A stretch of DNA of 12,615 nt from the IMG/VR virus record IMGVR_UViG_2541047681_000005; one strand, given 5' to 3'. A program made the position numbers and the translations under genes. Origin of the DNA: a virus. Its lineage: Duplodnaviria; Heunggongvirae; Uroviricota; Caudoviricetes. Below the pieces are notes generated by a model. The model worked only from the letters and a program-made list of their open reading frames with translations, had not been told where the DNA came from and made no database searches. Shown here one piece after another: positions 1 to 12,615 of the stretch. The first letter of the stretch is position 1. Each line of letters starts with the position of its first letter.

Positions 1-1230
1 ATGCGCAGAGCACTTAACAAACTGAGTGATACACAGCTAAGGAAAATCAACGGCACACCCGCCCAAAAAACAGCCTTTCTTAATGACGGTGGAAACCTGA
101 GCGTCAGGCATTCAACCAGCGGCCTTTTAACCTGGTATTTCACCTACAGGGCCGGAACGGGAAGGGGAGCACGACCGGAACGGATTAAGCTGGGAAATTA
201 TCCTGATCTGAGTCTGAAAGCTGCCAGGGAAAAAGCGGCACAGTGTCGCGCTTGGCTTGCTGAGGGGAAAAATCCACGTCATGAGATGAATTACACCGTA
301 CAGAAAGCGTTAAAGCCCGTAACGGTTGGCGATGCGCTTACCTACTGGCTTGAGTCTTACGTAAAGGAAAACCGCGTGGATTATGCCGCCCTGAAAAAGC
401 GCCTTAATAATCACGTAATACAGCACATTGGTGCTATGCCGCTGGATAAATGCGAGCTACGGCACTGGCTGGCCTGTTTTGACCAGGTGGCAAAGCGAAC
501 GCCTGTTACTGCCGGATTCTTGCTACAGACGTGCAAACAGGCGCTTAAGTTCTGCCGGAGGCGGCGCTATGCAATCAGCAACGTTCTTGATGATATGAGT
601 GTGGCGGACGTTGGGAAAAAACCGGATATAAGCGAGCGTGTCTTAAGCACCAAAGAACTTGGCGAATTATTGCAGGCACTGGACAAAAAAATATTTTCCC
701 CTTACTACGTCGCACTAATCCGCCTCCTGATTGTTTTCGGATGCCGGACGGTAGAACTGAGGTTATCGGAGATCAGCGAGTGGGATTTTACCGAAATGCT
801 CTGGACCGTGCCGAAAGAACACAGCAAAACGAAGGTGGCAATATTCCGGTCCATACCGGAAGCAATACTGCCGTTCGTCACGCAGCTGGTGGAGCAGAAC
901 AGGCACACGGGCTTATTGCTGGGGGAAGTGAAACAGGAAACAAGCGTGTCGCAGTACGGCAGATTAGCGCACAGGAGGCTAAAACACCCTCACTGGTCAC
1001 TGCATGACATCCGGCGCACCTTTACAACGATGCTGAACGATTTAGGCGTGGATCCTCACGTCGTGGAGCAGCTTACAGGTCATCAGATGCCAGGGATGCA
1101 ACGAGTCTATAACCATTCCCGTTATCTGGATGCGAAACGTGACGCGCTGGATATGTGGACGGAGCGGTTAGGGATACTGGCGGGAACACATGAAAACGTA
1201 ACCACATTGCCAATAGCCAGAGAAATATAA
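1..1230 (+). CDS. int: Tyrosine site-specific integrase, P4-type
   Basis: 409-aa ORF starting at window base 1. N-terminal arm-binding-like region (LNDGGNLSV...WYFTYR...LGNYPDLSLKAARE) and C-terminal catalytic region with HDIRRT (H-x-x-R) and a terminal VYNHSRY tyrosine motif. Upstream RBS not visible because the window starts at the ATG. Confidence 0.9.
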   Translation: MRRALNKLSDTQLRKINGTPAQKTAFLNDGGNLSVRHSTSGLLTWYFTYRAGTGRGARPERIKLGNYPDLSLKAAREKAAQCRAWLAEGKNPRHEMNYTVQKALKPVTVGDALTYWLESYVKENRVDYAALKKRLNNHVIQHIGAMPLDKCELRHWLACFDQVAKRTPVTAGFLLQTCKQALKFCRRRRYAISNVLDDMSVADVGKKPDISERVLSTKELGELLQALDKKIFSPYYVALIRLLIVFGCRTVELRLSEISEWDFTEMLWTVPKEHSKTKVAIFRSIPEAILPFVTQLVEQNRHTGLLLGEVKQETSVSQYGRLAHRRLKHPHWSLHDIRRTFTTMLNDLGVDPHVVEQLTGHQMPGMQRVYNHSRYLDAKRDALDMWTERLGILAGTHENVTTLPIAREI

Positions 1231-1836: not shown

Positions 1837-2196
1837 ATGAATACTGGATATTCTCCCGAACAAGGGCGGGGCTTCGTTCGTCCTGAAAAACAGAATCTGC
1901 AAAATTTTGCCGAAATTATTCCGGTTATTTCCGGCCTTACTGGCGGGAGTGAAACCAATATTGTTAACGCCAGAGCGTTGCAGATGTTTGATGATAAAAA
2001 GGGAGTAAATTTAACTTACACCCCTGACGGCAATCAGAATATGAGCATTATCTCTGAGTCAGGTTTCTACAAACTAATAAAAACAAAAAGCGCCCCGTTG
2101 CCGGAGCGCCTTTGTGAACAATTAACCTACTGCGCAAAAAATGAATCTGAGCAGTGGGATTATATCAACCATGTGGAGAAGCGCCACAATTGCCGA
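1837..2196 (+). pseudogene. Possible decayed Bro-N/antirepressor-like remnant (N-terminal part of a 428-aa composite ORF)
   Basis: The first ~115 aa (DGNQNMSIISESGFYKLIKTKSAPLPERL) weakly resemble the Bro-N/KilA-N motif (ESGLYSLI...). The remainder of ORF 1837..3123 is Cys/Arg/Ser-rich and low in complexity, crosses a divergent promoter region and overlaps a better-supported minus-strand gene, so the long ORF is not one real protein. Confidence 0.25.
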
Positions 2197-2543
2197 ATAA
2201 CGGGCAAAACAAAGGCCACCCGCTACGGTGGCCCCTCGACACAAGCTACACGTTATCCCCAACGCATGAGCATTGCCAACAATGCCACATTTGCGGCTGG
2301 TGGGCAATGCAATCAGTCTGGTTCAGTTCGTTGCCATACCTGCAATGAGCGCTTTTCCCTGTACTCTTTAAGGAATTGCTCAAGGGCAAAAGCACATGGC
2401 GCGAATCTTTCTGATTCATGCTCTATCTTTCTGCGCCGTCTTTTCCGTGCCGGTGATAATGTTTTGGTCAATTCTTTATCGGTCATTGTGTTGTCCTGCA
2501 TAGCAATGCGCCGTAGTTACTCACACCACGGCGCTGGTGATGG

Positions 2544-2723
2544 TTACTCCTGCTCTTTGGCCTTGCGGCGCTGGCGGCGTTTGATTTCGCCGCGCATGGC
2601 TGCGTTTATAAACTGTCCCGTGCTTTCGCCTTCTTCTTTCACGTTCTCCATGCCTTCAATAATTTCATGGGCAATACGTGCAGTTACAGATTGTGATTTT
2701 GCATTCTTTGGACCCGTTGCCAT
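2544..2723 (-). CDS. Hypothetical small basic protein (59 aa), divergently transcribed from the left operon
   Basis: Internal ATG at 2721..2723 (complement) preceded by RBS GAGGGG with 6-nt spacing; product MATGPKNAKSQ...EIKRRQRRKAKEQE. Candidate -35/-10 (TTCAAA/TATATT) on the minus strand, overlapped by operator-like repeats. Family not recognised. Confidence 0.45.
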   Translation of the reverse strand: MATGPKNAKSQSVTARIAHEIIEGMENVKEEGESTGQFINAAMRGEIKRRQRRKAKEQE

Positions 2724-2744
2724 GTTTAACCCCTCATGTTTTTG

Positions 2745-2826
2745 GTGTAAGACAATATACACGAAAAAAAAATATTTTGAAGGGTTGACGTGTAAGACAC
2801 CATTGTTTTACATTGTGTCTTACACC
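2745..2826. promoter_or_regulatory. Divergent promoter region with three copies of an 11-bp operator-like motif GTGTAAGACAC
   Basis: Motif at 2745..2755 and 2790..2800 (direct) and 2815..2825 (inverted). Candidate + strand promoter -35 TTGACG (2785..2790) and -10 TTACAT (2808..2813), 17-bp spacer; one operator copy sits in the spacer and the inverted copy at the predicted +1. Candidate minus-strand promoter overlaps the first copy. Confidence 0.55.
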
Positions 2827-2922
2827 TTATTGATGAAAGGCACAGAAACGACGAAACCCCGCACTGTAGGAGCAGTAACGGGGCTTCTAACCACCAACGA
2901 TAGCAACAGTATCGAGGTAGCT

Positions 2923-3123
2923 ATGAGAAATCATACCACACACCCGAAAGGGCGGGACTCGCACAACCTGAATAAATACATCTGGCGTTTTATCGCCCTG
3001 AGCACGGCACAACCGCGCGTGATTACCATTGAGGCCACCAGCGAACAGGAAGCACGCCAGCAATCTCCGGCTGGCTGCGTGATGGTATTTGCTGCCCGTA
3101 TTCGTCAGGGGGTAGGCTTATGA
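2923..3123 (+). CDS. Small protein (66 aa), first gene of the left operon; possibly Icd-like, otherwise hypothetical
   Basis: ATG at 2923 with RBS GAGGT upstream; product MRNHTTHPKGRDSHNLNKYIWRFIALSTAQPRVITIEATSEQEARQQ.... Its stop overlaps the next ATG (ATGA). The Icd-like assignment is a recollection of P4-like prophage annotations and is unverified. Confidence 0.45.
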   Translation: MRNHTTHPKGRDSHNLNKYIWRFIALSTAQPRVITIEATSEQEARQQSPAGCVMVFAARIRQGVGL

Positions 3124-3795: not shown

Positions 3796-4095
3796 ATGAA
3801 ACTTAAATATTCTGGCTTAACTGCCAGTGGCAAAACTCGCACTAAATTCATGCGCGGTGATATTTACCGCGACCAGTACGGCGGCACGGTAATGATTAAG
3901 GGCGTGGAGGAACGGCGCGTAACCTACCGTCGTGAAGGCTACGAATATGATTGCGTGATGCCTGTTTATCAGTTCGATCGTGATTTTTCTCTGGTGCAGG
4001 CCGTACCGCGTAACGTGCCCACCAGCAGGGAGAAAGCACGCGCCAATATTCAGGAAATAAAAAAGATGCTTAACGTATTCAGGGGTAAGAAATGA
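3796..4095 (+). CDS. Hypothetical protein (99 aa)
   Basis: ATG at 3796 with RBS GGAGA 9 nt upstream; stop overlaps the primase start (ATGA). No family recognised. Confidence 0.55.
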   Translation: MKLKYSGLTASGKTRTKFMRGDIYRDQYGGTVMIKGVEERRVTYRREGYEYDCVMPVYQFDRDFSLVQAVPRNVPTSREKARANIQEIKKMLNVFRGKK

Positions 4096-5846
4096 AACTG
4101 GCACCGAACGTAAAAAAACAACCACGCGGAATAAAACACAAAGACACAGAGGTAATTATTTTCGCGGGTAGTGATGCGTGGTCACATGCAAAACAGTGGC
4201 AGGAGCAGGACGGCCCCGCATCCGGCGATAATGTGCCGCCTGTGTGGCTTGGGCCAAATCAGCTTGCCGAACTTGATGCGCTGAAAATTGTTCCGGATGG
4301 GAAAAAGCGCGTAAGGCTGTACCAGGCCGGAGAACTGGATTTAGTGGAGACCAAAAAGATTGGTCAGAAGCTGGCGGCGGCAGATATTCAGGACGCAAAT
4401 TTTTACCCTGATGGTATGCACGGTCAGAAGGTGGAGAACTGGCGCGAATATCTGGCCCGTGAGCGCCAGAATCTTTCTGATGGTCTGGTCATTGAGCTTC
4501 CGGTAAAGCAAAAGGCGCAACTTTCGCAGATGGCGGACAGTGAGCGCGCGCAGCTGCTTGCCGATCGCTTTGATGGCGTTTGCGTACATCCTGAAAGTGA
4601 AATCGTTCACGTATGGCGCGGCGGGGTATGGTGTCCGGTCAGCACAATGGAACTTAGCCGCGAAATGGTGGCGATCTATTCAGAGCACAGGGCCACTTTC
4701 AGCAAGCGCGTAATCAATAACGCCGTGGAAGCGTTAAAAGTTATTGCCGAACCAATGGGCGAGCCGTCCGGCGATTTGCTGCCGTTCGCCAATGGTGCGC
4801 TTGACCTGAAAACGGGGGAATTTTCCCCGCACACGCCGGAGAACTGGATCACCACGCACAACGGCATTGAGTACACGCCACCAGCACCAGGGGAGAACAT
4901 CCGCGATAACGCGCCAAACTTTCATAAATGGCTTAAGCACGCAGCCGGAAAAGACCCGCGCAAGATGATGCGTATATGTGCCGCGCTGTACATGATTATG
5001 GCGAACCGGTACGACTGGCAGATGTTTATTGAGGCCACCGGAGACGGCGGGAGCGGTAAAAGTACATTCACGCACATAGCCAGCCTTCTGGCAGGGAAAC
5101 AGAACACGGTAAGCGCTGAAATGACATCGCTTGATGATGCTGGTGGACGTGCGCAGGTTGTCGGGAGTCGTCTTATCGTCCTGGCTGACCAGCCGAAATA
5201 TACAGGCGAAGGAACGGGCATCAAGAAAATCACGGGCGGTGACCCCGTGGAAATTAACCCGAAATACGAAAAGCGTTTCACGGCTGTAATCAGGGCGGTG
5301 GTGCTGGCGACCAACAATAACCCGATGATATTCACCGAACGGGCCGGAGGTGTGGCACGTCGTCGCGTGATTTTCCGTTTCGACAATATCGTCAGTGAGG
5401 CCGAAAAAGACAGGGAGCTACCGGAAAAGATCGCGGCTGAAATCCCTGTCATTATCCGCCGATTGCTGGCGAACTTTACCGACCCTGAGAAGGCACGGGC
5501 TTTACTACTGGAACAGCGTGACGGTGATGAAGCACTGGCAATAAAGCAACAGACGGATCCGGTTATTGAGTTTTGCCAGTTCCTGAATTTTCTGGAGGAA
5601 GCGCGCGGCCTGATGATGGGGGGCGGTGGCGATTCAGTGAAGTACACGACCAGGAACAGCCTTTACCGCGTCTATCTGGCGTTTATGGCATACGCAGGCA
5701 GGAGCAAACCGCTAAACGTAAATGACTTTGGAAAGGCTATGAAGCCTGCCGCAAAAGTTTACGGACATGAATATATTACGCGGAAAGTTAAGGGGGTAAC
5801 GCAGACTAACGCAATAACAACAGACGAGTGCGACGCGTTTTTATAA
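4092..5846 (+). CDS. Replication primase/helicase, P4-alpha / D5-like family with P-loop NTPase domain
   Basis: 584-aa ORF with RBS AGGGG upstream; Walker A motif GDGGSGKST, followed by a hydrophobic strand (LIVLADQP) consistent with Walker B. Position after int-alpA and immediately before an iteron cluster matches satellite pri-rep genes. Confidence 0.9.
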   Translation: MKLAPNVKKQPRGIKHKDTEVIIFAGSDAWSHAKQWQEQDGPASGDNVPPVWLGPNQLAELDALKIVPDGKKRVRLYQAGELDLVETKKIGQKLAAADIQDANFYPDGMHGQKVENWREYLARERQNLSDGLVIELPVKQKAQLSQMADSERAQLLADRFDGVCVHPESEIVHVWRGGVWCPVSTMELSREMVAIYSEHRATFSKRVINNAVEALKVIAEPMGEPSGDLLPFANGALDLKTGEFSPHTPENWITTHNGIEYTPPAPGENIRDNAPNFHKWLKHAAGKDPRKMMRICAALYMIMANRYDWQMFIEATGDGGSGKSTFTHIASLLAGKQNTVSAEMTSLDDAGGRAQVVGSRLIVLADQPKYTGEGTGIKKITGGDPVEINPKYEKRFTAVIRAVVLATNNNPMIFTERAGGVARRRVIFRFDNIVSEAEKDRELPEKIAAEIPVIIRRLLANFTDPEKARALLLEQRDGDEALAIKQQTDPVIEFCQFLNFLEEARGLMMGGGGDSVKYTTRNSLYRVYLAFMAYAGRSKPLNVNDFGKAMKPAAKVYGHEYITRKVKGVTQTNAITTDECDAFL

Positions 5847-6413: not shown

Positions 6414-6832
6414 CAGCACAGATAGCAGCTTACGGGCGGCTGGTGGACGACCCGCAGGTAAAACAGACCAGCAAGGGCACACCGATGACGCTGGCGCGTA
6501 TGGCGGTCCCCCTTCCGTGCAGCCAGGCAGATGACGGAACGGCGACGATGTGGTTATCCGTCCTGGCATTTGGCAGACAGGCCGAAGCACTGGAAAGGCA
6601 CCGCAAGGGTGAACTCCTGAGCGTGGCGGGTAACATGCAGATCAGCCAGTGGACTGGGCAGAACGGAGAAACGCGGCAGGGCTGGCAGGTTATCGCAGAC
6701 AGTGTAATCAGTGCGCGAACGGCGCGACTGGGCGGCAAAAAAGGTCAACAGGGCCAGGCTACTGACGCGCTGAACAGGGCAAAACAACAGGCGGGGAATG
6801 ATGATCCGTACGGGGATAACATACCGTTTTAA
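6410..6832 (+). CDS. SSB-like single-stranded DNA-binding protein (OB fold with SSB-type C-terminal tail)
   Basis: 140-aa ORF with RBS GGAGAGGTGG. N-terminal region aligns by eye with the E. coli SSB OB fold (GRLVDDPQV vs GNLGQDPEV; WLSVLAFGRQAEALERHRKGELLSV vs [25 protein letters not shown]). Gly/Gln-rich linker and C-terminal DDPYGDNIPF resemble the SSB DDDIPF tail. Confidence 0.65.
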   Translation: MTAQIAAYGRLVDDPQVKQTSKGTPMTLARMAVPLPCSQADDGTATMWLSVLAFGRQAEALERHRKGELLSVAGNMQISQWTGQNGETRQGWQVIADSVISARTARLGGKKGQQGQATDALNRAKQQAGNDDPYGDNIPF

Positions 6833-6848
6833 GCGACGAGAGACAGAA

Positions 6849-6870
6849 GCCGGAGCAATCCGGCTTTTTT
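6849..6870 (+). terminator. Rho-independent terminator after the SSB-like gene
   Basis: Hairpin GCCGGA-GCAA-TCCGGC followed by six T (6865..6870). Confidence 0.7.
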
Positions 6871-6908
6871 ACGGGTCCTCCTGGCGGGGTGGGCCTGAAC
6901 ACGGGGCG
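6871..6908 (+). other. Degenerate cos-like sequence (pseudo-cos)
   Basis: ACGGGTCCTCCTGGCGGGGTGGGCCTGAACACGGGGCGGGAAGCGCGG resembles the cosQ/cosN segment at 9313..9360 (ACGGGTCCTTTCCGG...ACGGGGCGGCGACCTCGCGG), and is preceded by the same terminator hairpin, but lacks the intact GGGCGGCGACCT core. Confidence 0.45.
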
Positions 6909-7044
6909 GGAAGCGCGGAAAAAAGCGCATTTTTGTGATTTTATCGTCATCATCATCATGAGCGTAATTTATTGTTTTTAATTGTTTTGATGCAAAAAAG
7001 ATGATGGTTGTGGTTAATTTTCGTTCGACATCTTTGCAGGCAGA

Positions 7045-7087
7045 TAAAAAAGCCCGATAAGGTCAGAGGTGGCTTATCGGGCTTTTG
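7045..7087. terminator. Bidirectional hairpin terminator candidate
   Basis: 11-bp perfect stem AGCCCGATAAG / CTTATCGGGCT with 11-nt loop, A-run upstream and T-run downstream. Confidence 0.5.
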
Positions 7088-7163
7088 CATATGAGGCTTT
7101 TTGGTGCACTGACACACATGAGCGGGATCATCATTTCATAATTTGCAACACAACTCAATATCA

Positions 7164-7212
7164 TTGTACAAAACGCAATCCTGATTATAATCAGAGCTGG
7201 ATGAACATCCAG
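7164..7212 (+). promoter_or_regulatory. Candidate promoter of the capsid operon with overlapping palindromic operators
   Basis: -35 TTGTAC (7164..7169), 16-bp spacer, -10 TATAAT (7186..7191). The -10 lies inside a perfect 14-bp palindrome CTGATTATAATCAG (7181..7194), followed by inverted repeat CTGGATG-AA-CATCCAG (7197..7212). Confidence 0.5.
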
Positions 7213-7247
7213 TTATGATTTTTTAAGTCGAAGAGGAATTTCTTACT

Positions 7248-7454
7248 ATGGCTGAAGAGAAAAAAGGCGGTGTTTCGGTGTACATAAGCCCCGAAATCGT
7301 GGAGGTGCTCAAGCAGCGCCACAAAAAAAACTATGAGGCTGGCGTGGCGGCTGGACTGGATCCGCTGATGACGCCGGAGCCGTCGATAGGTTCACTTGTA
7401 CGCTCTTATTTACTTGCGGCGCTTGGGATGCATAAAAATTATGGGGGTGAATAA
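7248..7454 (+). CDS. Hypothetical protein (68 aa), translationally coupled to the major capsid gene
   Basis: ATG at 7248 with RBS AGAGGA; its stop TAA overlaps the capsid ATG (TAATG). No family recognised. Confidence 0.55.
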   Translation: MAEEKKGGVSVYISPEIVEVLKQRHKKNYEAGVAAGLDPLMTPEPSIGSLVRSYLLAALGMHKNYGGE

Positions 7455-8509
7455 TGGCAGGCAAAGCAACGGCACTTAACACTAACCAGCTTTTCATGTA
7501 CCTGAATCGCGGGGATATTGCGGATTTTAAATTCAGCCCTCTGTTTACTACGCTGTTTTTCCCGAACGTGGCGACATTCAGCACGCAAAACATCATGCTG
7601 GATACCCTGGACATTGAAGAAGTCACCATGTCGGCGTTTTGTTCGCCTATGGTGGGTAGCCAGGTTCAGCGCGATAAAGGGTACGAAACCAGCACGATTA
7701 AACCTGGCTACATGAAGCCAAAGCACGAAATCGATCCAACGAAAACCATCATGCGCATGGCTGGAGAAGATCCGGCACAGCTTAACGACCCTACCTATCG
7801 CCGTATGCGCCTGATTACTGGCAATATGCGCCGCCAGATAAACGCCATAAAAGCGCGCGTGGAATGGCTGGCGGTAAATGCGGTAACGACCGGAAAAAAC
7901 ATCATTGAGGGCGAAGGCATAGAGCGCTATGAAATCGACTGGAAGATACCGGAAAAAAACATCATAGAGCAGGCCGACGGGAAAAAATGGTCAGAGCAGG
8001 ACAAAGAAACCCACGATCCAATCTATGATATCGAACTATACGCCGATCAGGCTGGTTGCCCCGCAAACGTCATGATTATGGGCGCTGAGGTATGGCGAAC
8101 GTTACGCAGCTTTAAAAAATTCCGTGAGCTGTACGATCTTTCCCGTGGTTCAGAATCCGCCGCCGAACTGGCCTGTAAAAACCTGGGCGAAGTGGTGAGC
8201 TTTAAAGGCTATCTTGGTGATCTGGCCCTTATCGTCTATTCCGGCAAATACACTGACAGCGATGGTACCGAAAAATATTTCCTTGAGCCTGATTTGCTGG
8301 TCCTGGGCAACACCAACAATAAAGGGCTGGTGGCCTATGGTGCGATAATGGATCAGGAAGCGGTAAGAACGGGCGCAACACAAAACATGTTTTACCCGAA
8401 AAACTGGATTGAGGACGGCGATCCGGCGATTGAGTACGTGCAGACACACAGTGCACCGCAGCCGGTACCGGCAGATATTCGCAAATTTGTTACCGTCAAA
8501 ATTGGTTAA
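7454..8509 (+). CDS. Major capsid protein, lambda gpE family
   Basis: 351-aa product aligns by eye along its length with lambda gpE (341 aa): [163 protein letters not shown] upstream. Confidence 0.9.
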   Translation: [351 protein letters not shown]

Positions 8510-8521
8510 CGGGGGGATTCT

Positions 8522-8857
8522 ATGGACACTCCATACATTGAGTTATTTGCAGGCAGTCAGCAGGTCGCCACGACGCTGGTACATTTTGCCGCTGATGCTG
8601 GCGTTATTCAGGAATTTACCCCGCTGATGCTGGCAGACAATGGCGAGTTTAAGCCGTGGGATGGTCAGGAATCTGGCAAGGCTGTTTATCTGACCTCGTA
8701 CCCTGTGGACACGTCAAAGCAGAAATCAGCACAGTGTTACAAGACGGGGATTTTCAATATTGCCGCCGTTAACTGGCCTGAGAGCGTCGACACCGATGCG
8801 AAAAAATGCGCCGCCTTTGCGGGTTCTGGCGTATCCGTTCAGCCGCTGGCCCGATAA
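8522..8857 (+). CDS. Head decoration protein, lambda gpD family
   Basis: 111-aa product (lambda gpD is 110 aa) with TPLMLADNGEFKPWDG vs TPLMLDTSSRKLVAWDG and YKTGIFNIAAVNWPESVDTDAKKCAAFAGSGVSVQ vs [44 protein letters not shown] upstream. Order is capsid then decoration, the reverse of lambda (D then E). Confidence 0.85.
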   Translation: MDTPYIELFAGSQQVATTLVHFAADAGVIQEFTPLMLADNGEFKPWDGQESGKAVYLTSYPVDTSKQKSAQCYKTGIFNIAAVNWPESVDTDAKKCAAFAGSGVSVQPLAR

Positions 8858-8869
8858 GCAGGGGGAACG

Positions 8870-9283
8870 ATGGCAACGAATGAAAGCGTCATGACGCTAC
8901 CGCTGGCGAGTAAATTTAAAGCCGAAGCGCGGGCAATGGCTGACAGAGGTTTATCAACCTACGAGGCCGTATATCAACTCAACAAACTGGAAGAGCAGGA
9001 CAAGCCGCGCGCTGATGCGATTATGGCGCTTCATGAACATAACGACTATCAGCCGCTGTTACGTGCAATGGCAAACGTGCCATGTATTAGCGTCGATAAT
9101 GCTCGTGAAATCCTGAACATGACCATAGAGCAGGAGCGCCCAAAGGTTGCGCCGGAGCTTACCGCAGCCTTTGAAAACTTTATGGACATGCACAGCCCGA
9201 AAGCCGTATCACCCGGCATGGCATACGACGGCAGAAACCAGGGCGATGAAGGCGACGTCGATCGCATACTGAAAACCATCTGA
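8870..9283 (+). CDS. Hypothetical protein (137 aa), last gene before cos
   Basis: ATG at 8870 with RBS AGGGGGA; followed by a strong terminator. No clear similarity to lambda FI or other remembered head proteins. Confidence 0.6.
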   Translation: MATNESVMTLPLASKFKAEARAMADRGLSTYEAVYQLNKLEEQDKPRADAIMALHEHNDYQPLLRAMANVPCISVDNAREILNMTIEQERPKVAPELTAAFENFMDMHSPKAVSPGMAYDGRNQGDEGDVDRILKTI

Positions 9284-9289
9284 CATAAG

Positions 9290-9312
9290 GCCGGAGAAAT
9301 CCGGCTTTTTTT
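9290..9312 (+). terminator. Rho-independent terminator after the capsid operon
   Basis: Hairpin GCCGGA-GAAA-TCCGGC followed by seven T (9306..9312); near-identical to the hairpin at 6849..6870. Confidence 0.75.
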
Positions 9313-9445
9313 ACGGGTCCTTTCCGGCATATGGACCCGTTACGGGGCGGCGACCTCGCGGGTTTTCGCTATTTATGACGTTTTTCCGTGAAGGTGACAC
9401 CACCACCACTTGATTAATATTTAACCATGCGGTTAAGGTAACATT
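9313..9445 (+). other. Lambda-type cos site (cosQ-like, cosN, short cosB) upstream of the TerS-like gene
   Basis: TACGGGTCCTTTCCGG...GTTACG|GGGCGGCGACCTCGCGGGTTTTCGCTATTTATGA closely matches the lambda cohesive-end region as remembered. Predicted 12-nt cohesive end GGGCGGCGACCT at 9345..9356. One R-site-like element (CGTTTTTCCGTG, about 9381..9392) and an AT-rich stretch follow. Confidence 0.75.
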
Positions 9446-9886
9446 ATGATTGATAAAGCTTGTTTTGTAAGTCAGCAGGAAATAGCTGAACATTTCAAGG
9501 TTAACAGAACCACTATTCGCGCATGGACCAAACAGGGGATGCCGTATCTTAATGCGGATCGCGGAAAGTCTGGCGGTTATCACATCGGGCATACATTGCT
9601 TTGGTCTTCAGGTAAAAGCCGTCTTGAGGCCATCAGATATCACGTAGAAACCAGTGCGCTGGAAAAAATTATGTTTGCCAGGCTGCTTTCATCTGAGCGT
9701 GACGAGTACTCCAGTGAAGAAACAGAACATCGATTTGATGAAGGTTTGCAGATTTACGGCTATTCACCGGAAGATGTGAGCAAGGCACGAAATAAAATGG
9801 CTGGCTTTCTGGCTGGGTGGCGTCATGCCGTAAGCGTTCGCCGTGCCAGCATGGAACAATCAGTCGTTACAGAACAGCAAAGTTAA
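9446..9886 (+). CDS. Small terminase-like protein, lambda Nu1-type DNA-binding N-terminus with divergent C-terminus (TerS/Rpp-like)
   Basis: 146-aa ORF about 90 bp downstream of cosN, as Nu1 is in lambda. N-terminus QQEIAEHFKVNRTTIRAWTKQGMPYL aligns with Nu1 KKQLADIFGASIRTIQNWQEQGMPVL (winged HTH). Shorter than Nu1 (181 aa) and the C-terminal region does not resemble Nu1's. Confidence 0.7.
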   Translation: MIDKACFVSQQEIAEHFKVNRTTIRAWTKQGMPYLNADRGKSGGYHIGHTLLWSSGKSRLEAIRYHVETSALEKIMFARLLSSERDEYSSEETEHRFDEGLQIYGYSPEDVSKARNKMAGFLAGWRHAVSVRRASMEQSVVTEQQS

Positions 9887-9915
9887 AAATCACTTTCTGT
9901 TACGCCATCAAATAC

Positions 9916-10012
9916 GCAATACAACAACCACGTATTTTTTTAAAACTATTTGATTCAATTAGCATTTTTTTATTTTTAGCATCAAAAAAACACTATCAGG
10001 TTGTTGTATTGC
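9916..10012. repeat. 14-bp perfect inverted repeat flanking a 69-bp AT-rich spacer
   Basis: GCAATACAACAACC (9916..9929) and its reverse complement GGTTGTTGTATTGC (9999..10012); a further direct ACAACAACC copy lies near 10060. Spacer contains T/A runs and repeated TAGCATTTTT. Confidence 0.55.
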
Positions 10013-10090
10013 TCTTTATTTTTACTTAGTTATCAAATGGATATGACAAACAATTAAACAACAACCTCCCTCTAAAAAAGCTCATAAATA

Positions 10091-10145
10091 GCGAAAAACC
10101 GCGAGGTCGCCGCCCCGTAACGGGCCATAATTCCAGGAAGGACCC
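10091..10145 (-). other. Second cos-like sequence in inverted orientation (cosQ/cosN-like, no recognisable cosB)
   Basis: Reverse complement of 10091..10145 reads CGGGTCCTTCCTGGAATTATGGCCCGTTACGGGGCGGCGACCTCGCGGTTTTTCGCTATTTATGA, about 85% identical to cos at 9313..9380 including an intact GGGCGGCGACCT. No R-site-like element or TerS gene follows it on the minus strand. Confidence 0.6.
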
Positions 10146-10179
10146 GACGACACCAGACTATCAGAACGATGGGGGCACA

Positions 10180-10461
10180 ATGACAGAAGCCGAAATACTG
10201 CGATTAATCCGCCGCGTTGCCGGAATCAGCCAGCAGCATGACGAACAGGCCACGCAGCCGGACAGCGTGACCGCTGAAAATTATGTGCGTGTTGTTGCTG
10301 AGGTGATGCGCCGTGATGGTATCCAGCTTAATGATGTTGATATGCGCGACATACGGATCCGCGTTCTGGAAATGCTGGCCTACAATCGCCGCGTTGAACT
10401 GTATCGGGAGAAAGAAAAAATAACGTACCACTGGAAGAAGCCGGAGCGGTTGCGGCGGTAA
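10180..10461 (+). CDS. Hypothetical protein (93 aa)
   Basis: ATG at 10180 with RBS GGGGGC upstream; charged product (MTEAEILRLIRRVAG...). No family recognised. Whether it belongs to the satellite or the junction region is unresolved. Confidence 0.5.
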   Translation: MTEAEILRLIRRVAGISQQHDEQATQPDSVTAENYVRVVAEVMRRDGIQLNDVDMRDIRIRVLEMLAYNRRVELYREKEKITYHWKKPERLRR

Positions 10462-11154
10462 CTGGTTGATATTTTCGAAATTCGCCAGCGGCGAACATCG
10501 GGGAAACCAGCCTAACCCGTTGATATTTTCGGAAACCTCAATTTGAGGAAGTCGGCGCGGTAACTCGCTGAACTTAAAGCAAAGCGCAAAATTGCGCTTG
10601 CTGAATAATCATTATGATTACGCAGATGATTAAGGAATGACCGAAGGCGGAAATTCGCCTGTGGTTAATGGGGGAGTTGCAGATCTGCAACTCGACCATG
10701 AAACTACGGAAACTACCCGTAGTTTGGGTAGTAAGAGTAACACCCAGATTTTGGGGCTTACTCGTGATACCCAAATTTGGGGTATCGGTGGCAACCATAA
10801 CGACTTTCGTTACGGTTGATGCTTTTACCCCATTGGGGGAAAGGTATTACGATAATCATAACACCTACCGAACAGGTAAAGCCCACCAGCCTGATTAACG
10901 TTTAACCGGAAAAAAATTCCGGTAGGTGGGGATCCCCATATAGACATTAACGCCCCTCATGAATTGGTGCGCTTCCCCCTGGAAAGATGATCCGCCTGTA
11001 TATTTCTTGTGTCTATTTGTTCCACGTTGTTTCATACGGTGCACCGAACGGTGTAGTTAATGGTGTAGTCAATTTGCGATTTTTGGCACTTTTTCAGTGT
11101 AGATTATTTAATTAAATCAATGGTTTGTCTTGATATAGTGATAAAAGGACATAT
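10462..11154. other. Palindrome-dense non-coding tract between the last satellite ORF and phoQ (possible attR region or structured RNA)
   Basis: No convincing ORF. Direct repeat TAAC-nGTTGATATTTTCG-AAA at about 10459 and 10513. Hairpin-forming palindromes roughly every 30 bp, e.g. AAGCGCAAAATTGCGCTT, GTTGCAGATCTGCAAC, GATACCCAAATTTGGGGTATC, CCGGAAAAAAATTCCGG, TGGGGATCCCCA, CGGTGCACCG. Tandem GGTGTAGT(T/C)AAT at 11050..11073. Confidence 0.4.
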
Positions 11155-12615
11155 TTATTCATCTTTCGGCGCAGAATGCTGGCGACCAAAAATCACTTCC
11201 ATCCGCGCACCGCCCAGCATGCTCTCTCCGGCGACGATTTTACCCTCATATTGCTCGGTGATTTCGCGGGCTACCGCCAGCCCCACACCTTGCCCAGGGC
11301 GTAAAGTATCAACCCGTTGACCACGGTCGAAAATGACCTCTCGCTTGCTTAATGGAATACCGGGGCCATCATCCTCGACCACAATATAGAGATGCTCGTC
11401 GGTTTGCCTTGCAGAAATTTCGACAAACTCGAGGCAATATTTACAGGCGTTATCCAGCACGTTGCCCATCACTTCGACAAAATCATTCTGCTCACCAACA
11501 AAGCTGATTTCTGGCGAGATATCGAGAGAGATATTGACCCCTTTGCGTTGATACACTTTGTTCAGCGCCGAGGTGAGATTGTCCAACAGTGGCGCGACCG
11601 GATGCAGCTCGCGGCTAAGCAATGTCCCGCCGCGCATACTGGCACGATGCAGGTAGTAGCCAATTTGCTGTGAAATGCGGCTGATTTGCTCCAGCATTAC
11701 CGGCTCAGCATCACTGACGCTCATCTTCTCACTACGCAGAGAACGCAGCGTACTTTGCAGCACCGCCAGTGGCGTTTTCAGACTATGGGTCAGGTCGGTG
11801 AGCGTTGTACGATATTTGTCGTAACGTTCGCGTTCACTTTTTAACAGTCGGTTCAGGTTTCGTACCAGACTGGTCAGTTCTCGCGTTGTGGCTGGATTGA
11901 GCAATTCACGGTTATGTTCTTCCAGTTCGCGGACTTCTTTTGCCAGGGCTTCGATGGGGCGTAAACTCCACCAGGCGGCGACCCACAGCAGCGGGATCAC
12001 TAACAGCAGATTGGCTGAGAGCACATAGATAAACCAGCTCCAGACCATATAGGAACTTTTTAGCTCCACCGGAATGGTATCCACCACCACAATGGTTAAC
12101 TTTGGCATCCGCGATGTTGCCGGGTAGACGTTTACCGCCACCGAGTGGGTCATCTCCGCGTCGTCATCATCTTCCCGCACTTCCTGCAACTGTTGCTGTA
12201 TCGAATGATCTCCACTCAGCAAGAGGCTGGTATCGTTAACATCCGCTTCAATTTCATGAAAACCATTCGATTTCAGCCAGTCAGGCTGGATCATCTTCAT
12301 CAGCCAGGGCACGTCACGTTGCGCCCATAAAAGCTGCCCGTTCTCATCATAAATTAGTGTCATCGTGGGGCTTTGCTTGTCGATATTTTCGGGTAACTCG
12401 ACATGCAACTTATTGTTTTCCCACTTCGCAAGGGTATAGAACAGATTGCTCTCGCCACGTAACAGCCGAAACGTGGTTTTATCGAAACTGACGCTATAAC
12501 CGATCAGCGCAACCATTCCGTAGGCAAGCGAAAGCACCAATACTACTGCTGCCGTTGCTAACAGAAAACGTACCCGCAGCGAGAGCGGGAAAAAAAGATG
12601 CAGTAATTTTTTCAT
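11155..12615 (-). CDS. phoQ: Sensor histidine kinase PhoQ (PhoP/PhoQ two-component system), complete
   Basis: 486-aa minus-strand ORF whose ATG is the last codon of the window. Two transmembrane segments, periplasmic acidic cluster EDDDDAE, H-box [15 protein letters not shown] and G-box DDGPGIP; reads as full-length Escherichia/Shigella-type PhoQ. Confidence 0.97.

Follow-up and report, generated by a model that had tools for sequence, protein, structure and literature searches.

The feature under study is an ORF of 146 aa on the plus strand (9446-9886) of a 12,615-nucleotide stretch of viral DNA (IMG/VR record IMGVR_UViG_2541047681_000005), referred to here as the window. It opens with an ATG, carries a Shine-Dalgarno-like AAGG 8 nt before that codon, and ends in a stop codon at 9884-9886. 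Arms of a 72-nt inverted repeat (86% complementary; 9314-9385 and 10075-10146) lie on either side of it. By its sequence, the surrounding DNA is a phage-inducible chromosomal island (PICI) of the EcCICFT073 type, located upstream of phoQ. In E. coli CFT073, the island sits between roxA and phoQ; its genes include int, alpA, and ssb, together with those for a primase, a major capsid protein, and a head decoration protein. Except in a few replaced segments, the window runs collinear with it at 91-98% identity.

Pfam and PHROGs searches of the major ORFs in the window returned an integrase, AlpA, a D5/P4-type primase, SSB, a gpE-like capsid protein, and a gpD-like decoration protein, along with small proteins of unknown function. 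The integrase gene (1..1230, plus strand) forms the left end of the island; its product matches Pfam Arm-DNA-bind_3 and Phage_integrase and is 99.5% identical to the integrase of the CFT073 island. As the window begins at the integrase ATG, attL and the roxA flank lie outside it. The primase/replication initiator (4092..5846, plus strand; Pfam D5_N, DUF5906, and Pox_D5) is 94.5% identical to its CFT073 counterpart. Host phoQ, a full-length 486-aa ORF on the minus strand (11155-12615), provides the right-hand chromosomal flank.

Upstream of the packaging module, the island itself encodes a lambda gpE-like major capsid protein (7454-8509, plus strand; Pfam Phage_cap_E, E=6e-52) and a gpD-like head decoration protein (8522-8857, plus strand; Pfam HDPD, E=1e-17). 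Taken jointly, the two are 98-99% identical to the c1499/c1500 homologues. In CFT073, interference persists when c1499 and c1500 are deleted, and the capsids that package the island are full-size (PMC6092414). Between the decoration gene and the first cos site lies a gene for a 137-aa protein (8870-9283, plus strand) matching phrog_1999 (unknown function; E=1e-61) and 90% identical to the CFT073 counterpart. This protein also has a weak match to the C-terminal end of the phrog_53 head maturation protease (profile positions 495-567 of 583, E=2e-9) and might contain a scaffold-like (Nu3-like) domain.

The 428-aa frame in the ORF list (1837-3123, plus strand) is unlikely to be a single gene. Its match to a PHROG "transcriptional repressor" is confined to the C-terminal ~90 aa, the segment 2923-3123 is 97% identical to the Icd-like division inhibitor of CFT073, and the CFT073 annotation shows a pseudogene and small genes at the equivalent position. 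A YlcI/YnfO-like protein (2583-2723, minus strand) is 66% identical to that of CFT073. The C-terminus of SSB and the intergenic stretch that follows differ from CFT073, leaving a BLAST gap at 6714-7046. The PerC-family regulator gene that follows ssb in the CFT073 island is missing from the window island, with no tblastn counterpart in the window (corresponding site, 6833-7247).

The sequence directly upstream of the 146-aa ORF is a lambda-type cos site that corresponds to cos1 of EcCICFT073. Its cosQ-like segment (ACGGGTCCTTTCCGG...GTTACG; 9313..9344, plus strand) lies left of the nicking site and aligns with the right end of lambda DNA. The adjoining cosN (GGGCGGCGACCT; 9345..9356, plus strand) is an exact match to the 12-nt lambda cohesive end (bases 1-12). 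The cosB region then extends up to the start codon of the ORF (9357..9445, plus strand). Its first ~25-30 nt past cosN still match lambda, after which it diverges fully from lambda cosB as far as the ATG, making it PICI-specific from ~30 nt past cosN. Across cos1 including cosB (9301-9445), 143 of 145 positions are identical to CFT073. Murialdo and Feiss proposed an Rpp-binding equivalent of R3, termed R3-PICI, at bp 48-65 from the start of the cohesive end (PMC9026076). The proposed site maps to 9392-9409 (AGGTGACACCACCACCAC) and is unchanged relative to CFT073.

The right arm of the 72-nt repeat is cos2, an inverted second cosQ/cosN copy (10075..10146, minus strand) with its cosN at 10104-10115 (minus strand). 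EcCICFT073 likewise has two cos sites. Its cos1 is required for transfer mediated by lambda and phi80, while cos2 is dispensable and its deletion raises transfer (PMC6092414). Between the stop codon and cos2 lies an A+T-rich spacer (9887..10074), which forms the cosB side of cos2. It shows no homology to its CFT073 equivalent and harbors a 26-nt inverted repeat of its own (9916-9941/9987-10012).

Comparison with CFT073 identified the ORF as an allele of rppA. The product shares 142 of 144 residues with WP_000565609.1 (CFT073, 144 aa), and blastn against complete E. coli genomes gave 99.1% nucleotide identity over nt 1-437 in two CFT073 assemblies. WP_000565609.1 is annotated as a "hypothetical protein"; its gene comes after cos1 in the roxA-phoQ island. 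RppA was characterized by Fillol-Salom et al. (2019, Mol Cell 75:1020; PMC6739421) as the 144-residue product of c1503 in EcCICFT073. Figure S1 of that study prints the EcCICFT073 cos1 leading directly into the RppA ATG, and the N-terminus of the window protein is the same as the RppA sequence printed there (start, MIDKACFVSQQEIAEHFKVNRTTIRAWTKQGMPYLNADRGKSGGYHIGHT). The accession WP_000565609 was not found in the supplements of PMC6739421. We equate WP_000565609.1 with RppA because the printed sequence, the 144-aa length, the c1503/cos1 context, and the named residues all agree. The same evidence (142/144 identity, the printed N-terminus, the cos1 context, and the presence of the mutated residues) assigns the window ORF as an rppA allele. 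We place the probability at roughly 0.95 that this ORF encodes RppA, the PICI "redirecting phage packaging" protein of the EcCICFT073 type that would redirect packaging through helper TerS. Nothing in the sequence contradicted this reading.

By blastn, 110 complete E. coli genomes contain relatives of rppA, with coverage of at least 80% in 97, and the ORF is therefore not a chance reading frame. A tblastn search with the protein against 50,697 phage records gave no match at E<=1e-3, a pattern consistent with a satellite-specific protein and not with a phage TerS.

The structurally characterized relative of the protein is RppC (Redirecting phage packaging protein C) of EcCIEC2733.1, which was solved alone (6HLK) and with lambda TerS(1-98) (6HN7) (PMC6739421). 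A phmmer search against all PDB chains returned RppC with E=5.7e-31 over aa 2-125 of the window protein. From the CFT073 and RppC homology, we assign a winged helix-turn-helix domain (wHTH) to approximately aa 1-64, followed by a helical half predicted to serve in dimerization and TerS contact; RppC has a wHTH and a helical C-terminal half, an arrangement that the window protein probably shares. Residues that read DNA in RppC (R21, T22, R25, K29, and K41) are conserved in the window protein, as are L51 and F121, such that every residue mutated in PMC6739421 (R21/T22, L51, and F121) is retained. In place of R30 and K39 of RppC, the window protein has Gln and Arg, respectively. The identity of the protein, that of its cos1 target, and the retention of these functional residues are read directly from the window. 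RppC is nevertheless a distinct protein of 153 aa with ~44% identity to RppA and poorly conserved dimer-interface residues. RppC is the tighter TerS binder of the two and does not cross-dimerize with RppA (PMC6739421).

Single-sequence AlphaFold2 modeling of the window protein gave a low-confidence model (pLDDT 53, pTM 0.35). In the model, a strand is followed by two helices, a beta-hairpin, a further helix, and then three helices. The C-terminal helices are placed at 59-82, 90-103, and, as a long helix, 108-144. This order fits the topology of RppC, although at a pLDDT of 53. Because of the low confidence of the model, our assignment of an RppC-like fold to the C-terminal half, which is probable, draws instead on the RppC alignment up to residue 125.

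The first-pass annotation of this DNA had described a small terminase with a wHTH that is clearly Nu1-like. The N-terminal likeness was borne out by BLASTP, which aligned aa 8-71 with lambda Nu1 residues 3-55 at 30% identity (pairwise E=3e-6), and by PHROGs, in which the match to phrog_57 ("terminase small subunit") was confined to aa 7-47 (E=4e-8). However, "clearly" overstates the case. The N-terminal domains of lambda TerS in the PDB matched only at E=0.08-0.2 by phmmer, Pfam gave no Phage_Nu1 match at E<=0.01, and a tblastn search of the whole window with Nu1 missed the rppA gene. The published RppC structure superimposes on that of the lambda TerS N-domain (1J9I) with an RMSD of 1.6 Å at 25% identity (PMC6739421). 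With this structure in mind, the resemblance to Nu1 is real but weak in sequence and mainly structural. Two further statements of that annotation held. The protein is 35 aa shorter than Nu1 (146 versus 181 aa), and its C-terminal half is unlike Nu1, with no alignment there by BLASTP (E=62).

These results bear on whether the protein could be a genuine, self-sufficient TerS of the island, paired with a large terminase that the island encodes or that the protein recruits directly. The phrog_57 match at aa 7-47 is compatible with that idea, as is the position of the gene directly after a cos site, which is also where lambda nu1 lies. Yet homology to Nu1 is confined to aa 8-71, and the gpA-binding C-terminal region of Nu1 has no counterpart; Pfam Phage_Nu1 is likewise missing. 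The search for a large terminase was negative as well. Pfam and PHROGs gave no terminase match on the major ORFs of the window, and six-frame tblastn of lambda gpA returned a best E of 2.6. The gene after rppA encodes a 93-aa protein (phrog_1561, unknown function) and is followed by phoQ, with no adjacent large terminase gene. Neither full-length homology to a canonical TerS nor a nearby TerL was therefore found, in line with the earlier statement that the element encodes no TerL. The island itself holds neither terS nor terL. Finally, transfer of the island requires the terS of the helper (PMC6092414). Since homology to Nu1 is only partial, TerL is missing, and the need for helper terS is published, we rejected a bona fide TerS, which we regard as extremely improbable.

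A comparison with lambda gpNu1 (NP_040580; N-domain 1J9I) summarizes the relationship. Both proteins have a wHTH, and both genes directly follow cosN-cosB. In contrast to gpNu1, RppA lacks the oligomerization and gpA-binding C-terminal region and is accompanied by no TerL. RppA-type proteins dimerize through C-terminal helices and not through the DNA-binding domain, and the cosB they recognize differs from that of gpNu1 (PMC6739421).

The Pfam results, taken by themselves, would also allow a MerR/HTH-type transcription regulator that acts on late genes of the island or the helper and affects packaging only indirectly. Generic HTH and MerR families are what Pfam returned for this protein, but every one of these matches falls below the gathering threshold, and they are overridden by the RppC match. 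A direct role in packaging is also documented for this protein family by the RppC-TerS crystal structure, escape mutations in terS, and cosB swaps (PMC6739421). We consequently rejected a generic regulator, an explanation to which we give almost no credence.

The function of RppA, including its redirection of packaging, is already known and was characterized in CFT073. The steps that follow rely on experiments published for RppC and for CFT073 RppA, which is 99% identical to the window protein (PMC6739421, PMC6092414). Upon induction of a lambda-like helper, RppA would form a homodimer via its C-terminal helices. Its N-terminal wHTH would mimic the DNA-binding domain of helper TerS (Nu1) and replace the second TerS domain, generating a heterocomplex, TerS-Rpp2-TerS. 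Its hybrid DNA-binding unit would lack recognition of phage cosB, blocking phage packaging, and would recognize the island cosB, which stands next to the lambda-type cosN/cosQ at cos1, directly upstream of rppA. TerS within the complex would supply gpA, which Rpp apparently cannot bind; the literature suggests that TerL is recruited by way of TerS. Rpp proteins are without the last 30-40 TerS residues that bind TerL, and helper TerS was proposed to bring TerL (PMC9026076). Nicking of the island cosN by gpA would then send island DNA into helper capsids.

Helper escape mutants map to terS (E65K, Y50N, and others; PMC6739421), and the helper's own terS is needed for island transfer (PMC6092414). 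On the Rpp side, the R21A/T22A substitutions, which affect DNA readout, keep interference but lose packaging of cos1 and the island. L51D loses heterodimerization with TerS, and F121R loses Rpp homodimerization (PMC6739421). A cosB swap transfers RppA dependence, and RppA-dependent packaging is conferred only by the cosB of cos1 (PMC6739421). By analogy with the 99% identical CFT073 RppA and with RppC, the window allele would bind TerS, interfere with the phage, and direct cos1-dependent packaging. The window shows neither a helper prophage nor a helper TerS.

The first-pass annotation had anticipated much of this by proposing that the protein pairs with helper gpA/Nu1 and steers packaging toward the satellite cosB. 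Redirection through the helper terminase matches the published RppA/RppC mechanism, but the documented partner is helper TerS (Nu1) and not gpA. Its comparison with enterobacterial PICI redirecting proteins pointed in the right direction while understating the relationship. The protein is not simply analogous to them, being 99% identical to RppA (c1503).

The window island and EcCICFT073 agree in the position of rppA directly after cos1, in the order int, alpA, pri, ssb, gpE-like, gpD-like, rpp, cos2, in residues R21, T22, L51, and F121, and in adjoining phoQ. They differ at the end of rppA and beyond it. The window protein ends in SVVTEQQS*, compared with SADTEQ* in CFT073, resulting in two substitutions and two extra C-terminal residues (146 versus 144 aa). 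The BLAST gap begins at this point and spans 9882-10082, with the breakpoint at the last rppA codons and ~200 bp of unrelated sequence between the stop codon and cos2.

A variant tail and a replaced downstream segment could mark a drifted or non-functional allele in a decaying island. The C-terminal end unlike that of CFT073 and the recombination breakpoint at the 3' end of rppA are what such decay might leave behind. Against this, the ORF is intact, all tested functional residues are kept, and cos1 is conserved. The same 441-nt allele type is present, full-length and at 98-100% identity, in many complete genomes, and 79 genomes carry the whole arrangement spanning 9200-10500. This distribution across genomes fits a maintained variant better than it fits decay, which we judge very unlikely. 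The differences in the spacer, the C-terminal tail, and PerC are ordinary mosaicism between island variants.

The position of the breakpoint also allows a more speculative view, in which cos1-rppA-cos2 is a mosaic cassette. Here, cos2 with its variable cosB might be a second, Rpp-independent site for the native TerS of another helper, with the RppA tail being either a by-product or co-adapted. When the cos2 region was compared with phages by blastn, matches were limited to the cosQ/cosN part, with nothing beyond ~50 nt past cosN, and no phage donor emerged for the divergent cosB side of cos2. We consider this mosaic-cassette idea improbable. If it were true, the variable cosB of cos2 would widen or switch the helper range of island variants.

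Among satellites, RppA joins SaPI TerS(S) and PLE-type hijackers as factors that redirect the packaging specificity of a helper. The routes differ, however. SaPI TerS replaces the phage TerS, binds phage TerL directly, and serves pac (headful) packaging, whereas Rpp proteins form a heterocomplex with phage TerS and serve cos packaging (PMC6092414, PMC6739421).

The island in the window is a further copy of the archetypal EcCICFT073 type and is mechanistically nothing new. What little it offers is natural variation, in the C-terminal tail and the cos2-proximal segment, for comparative work on cos2 function. More broadly, Rpp proteins explain how enterobacterial cos-type PICIs both hinder lambda-like helpers and get packaged, which is relevant to how virulence and accessory genes carried on islands spread and to engineered PICI "drones".
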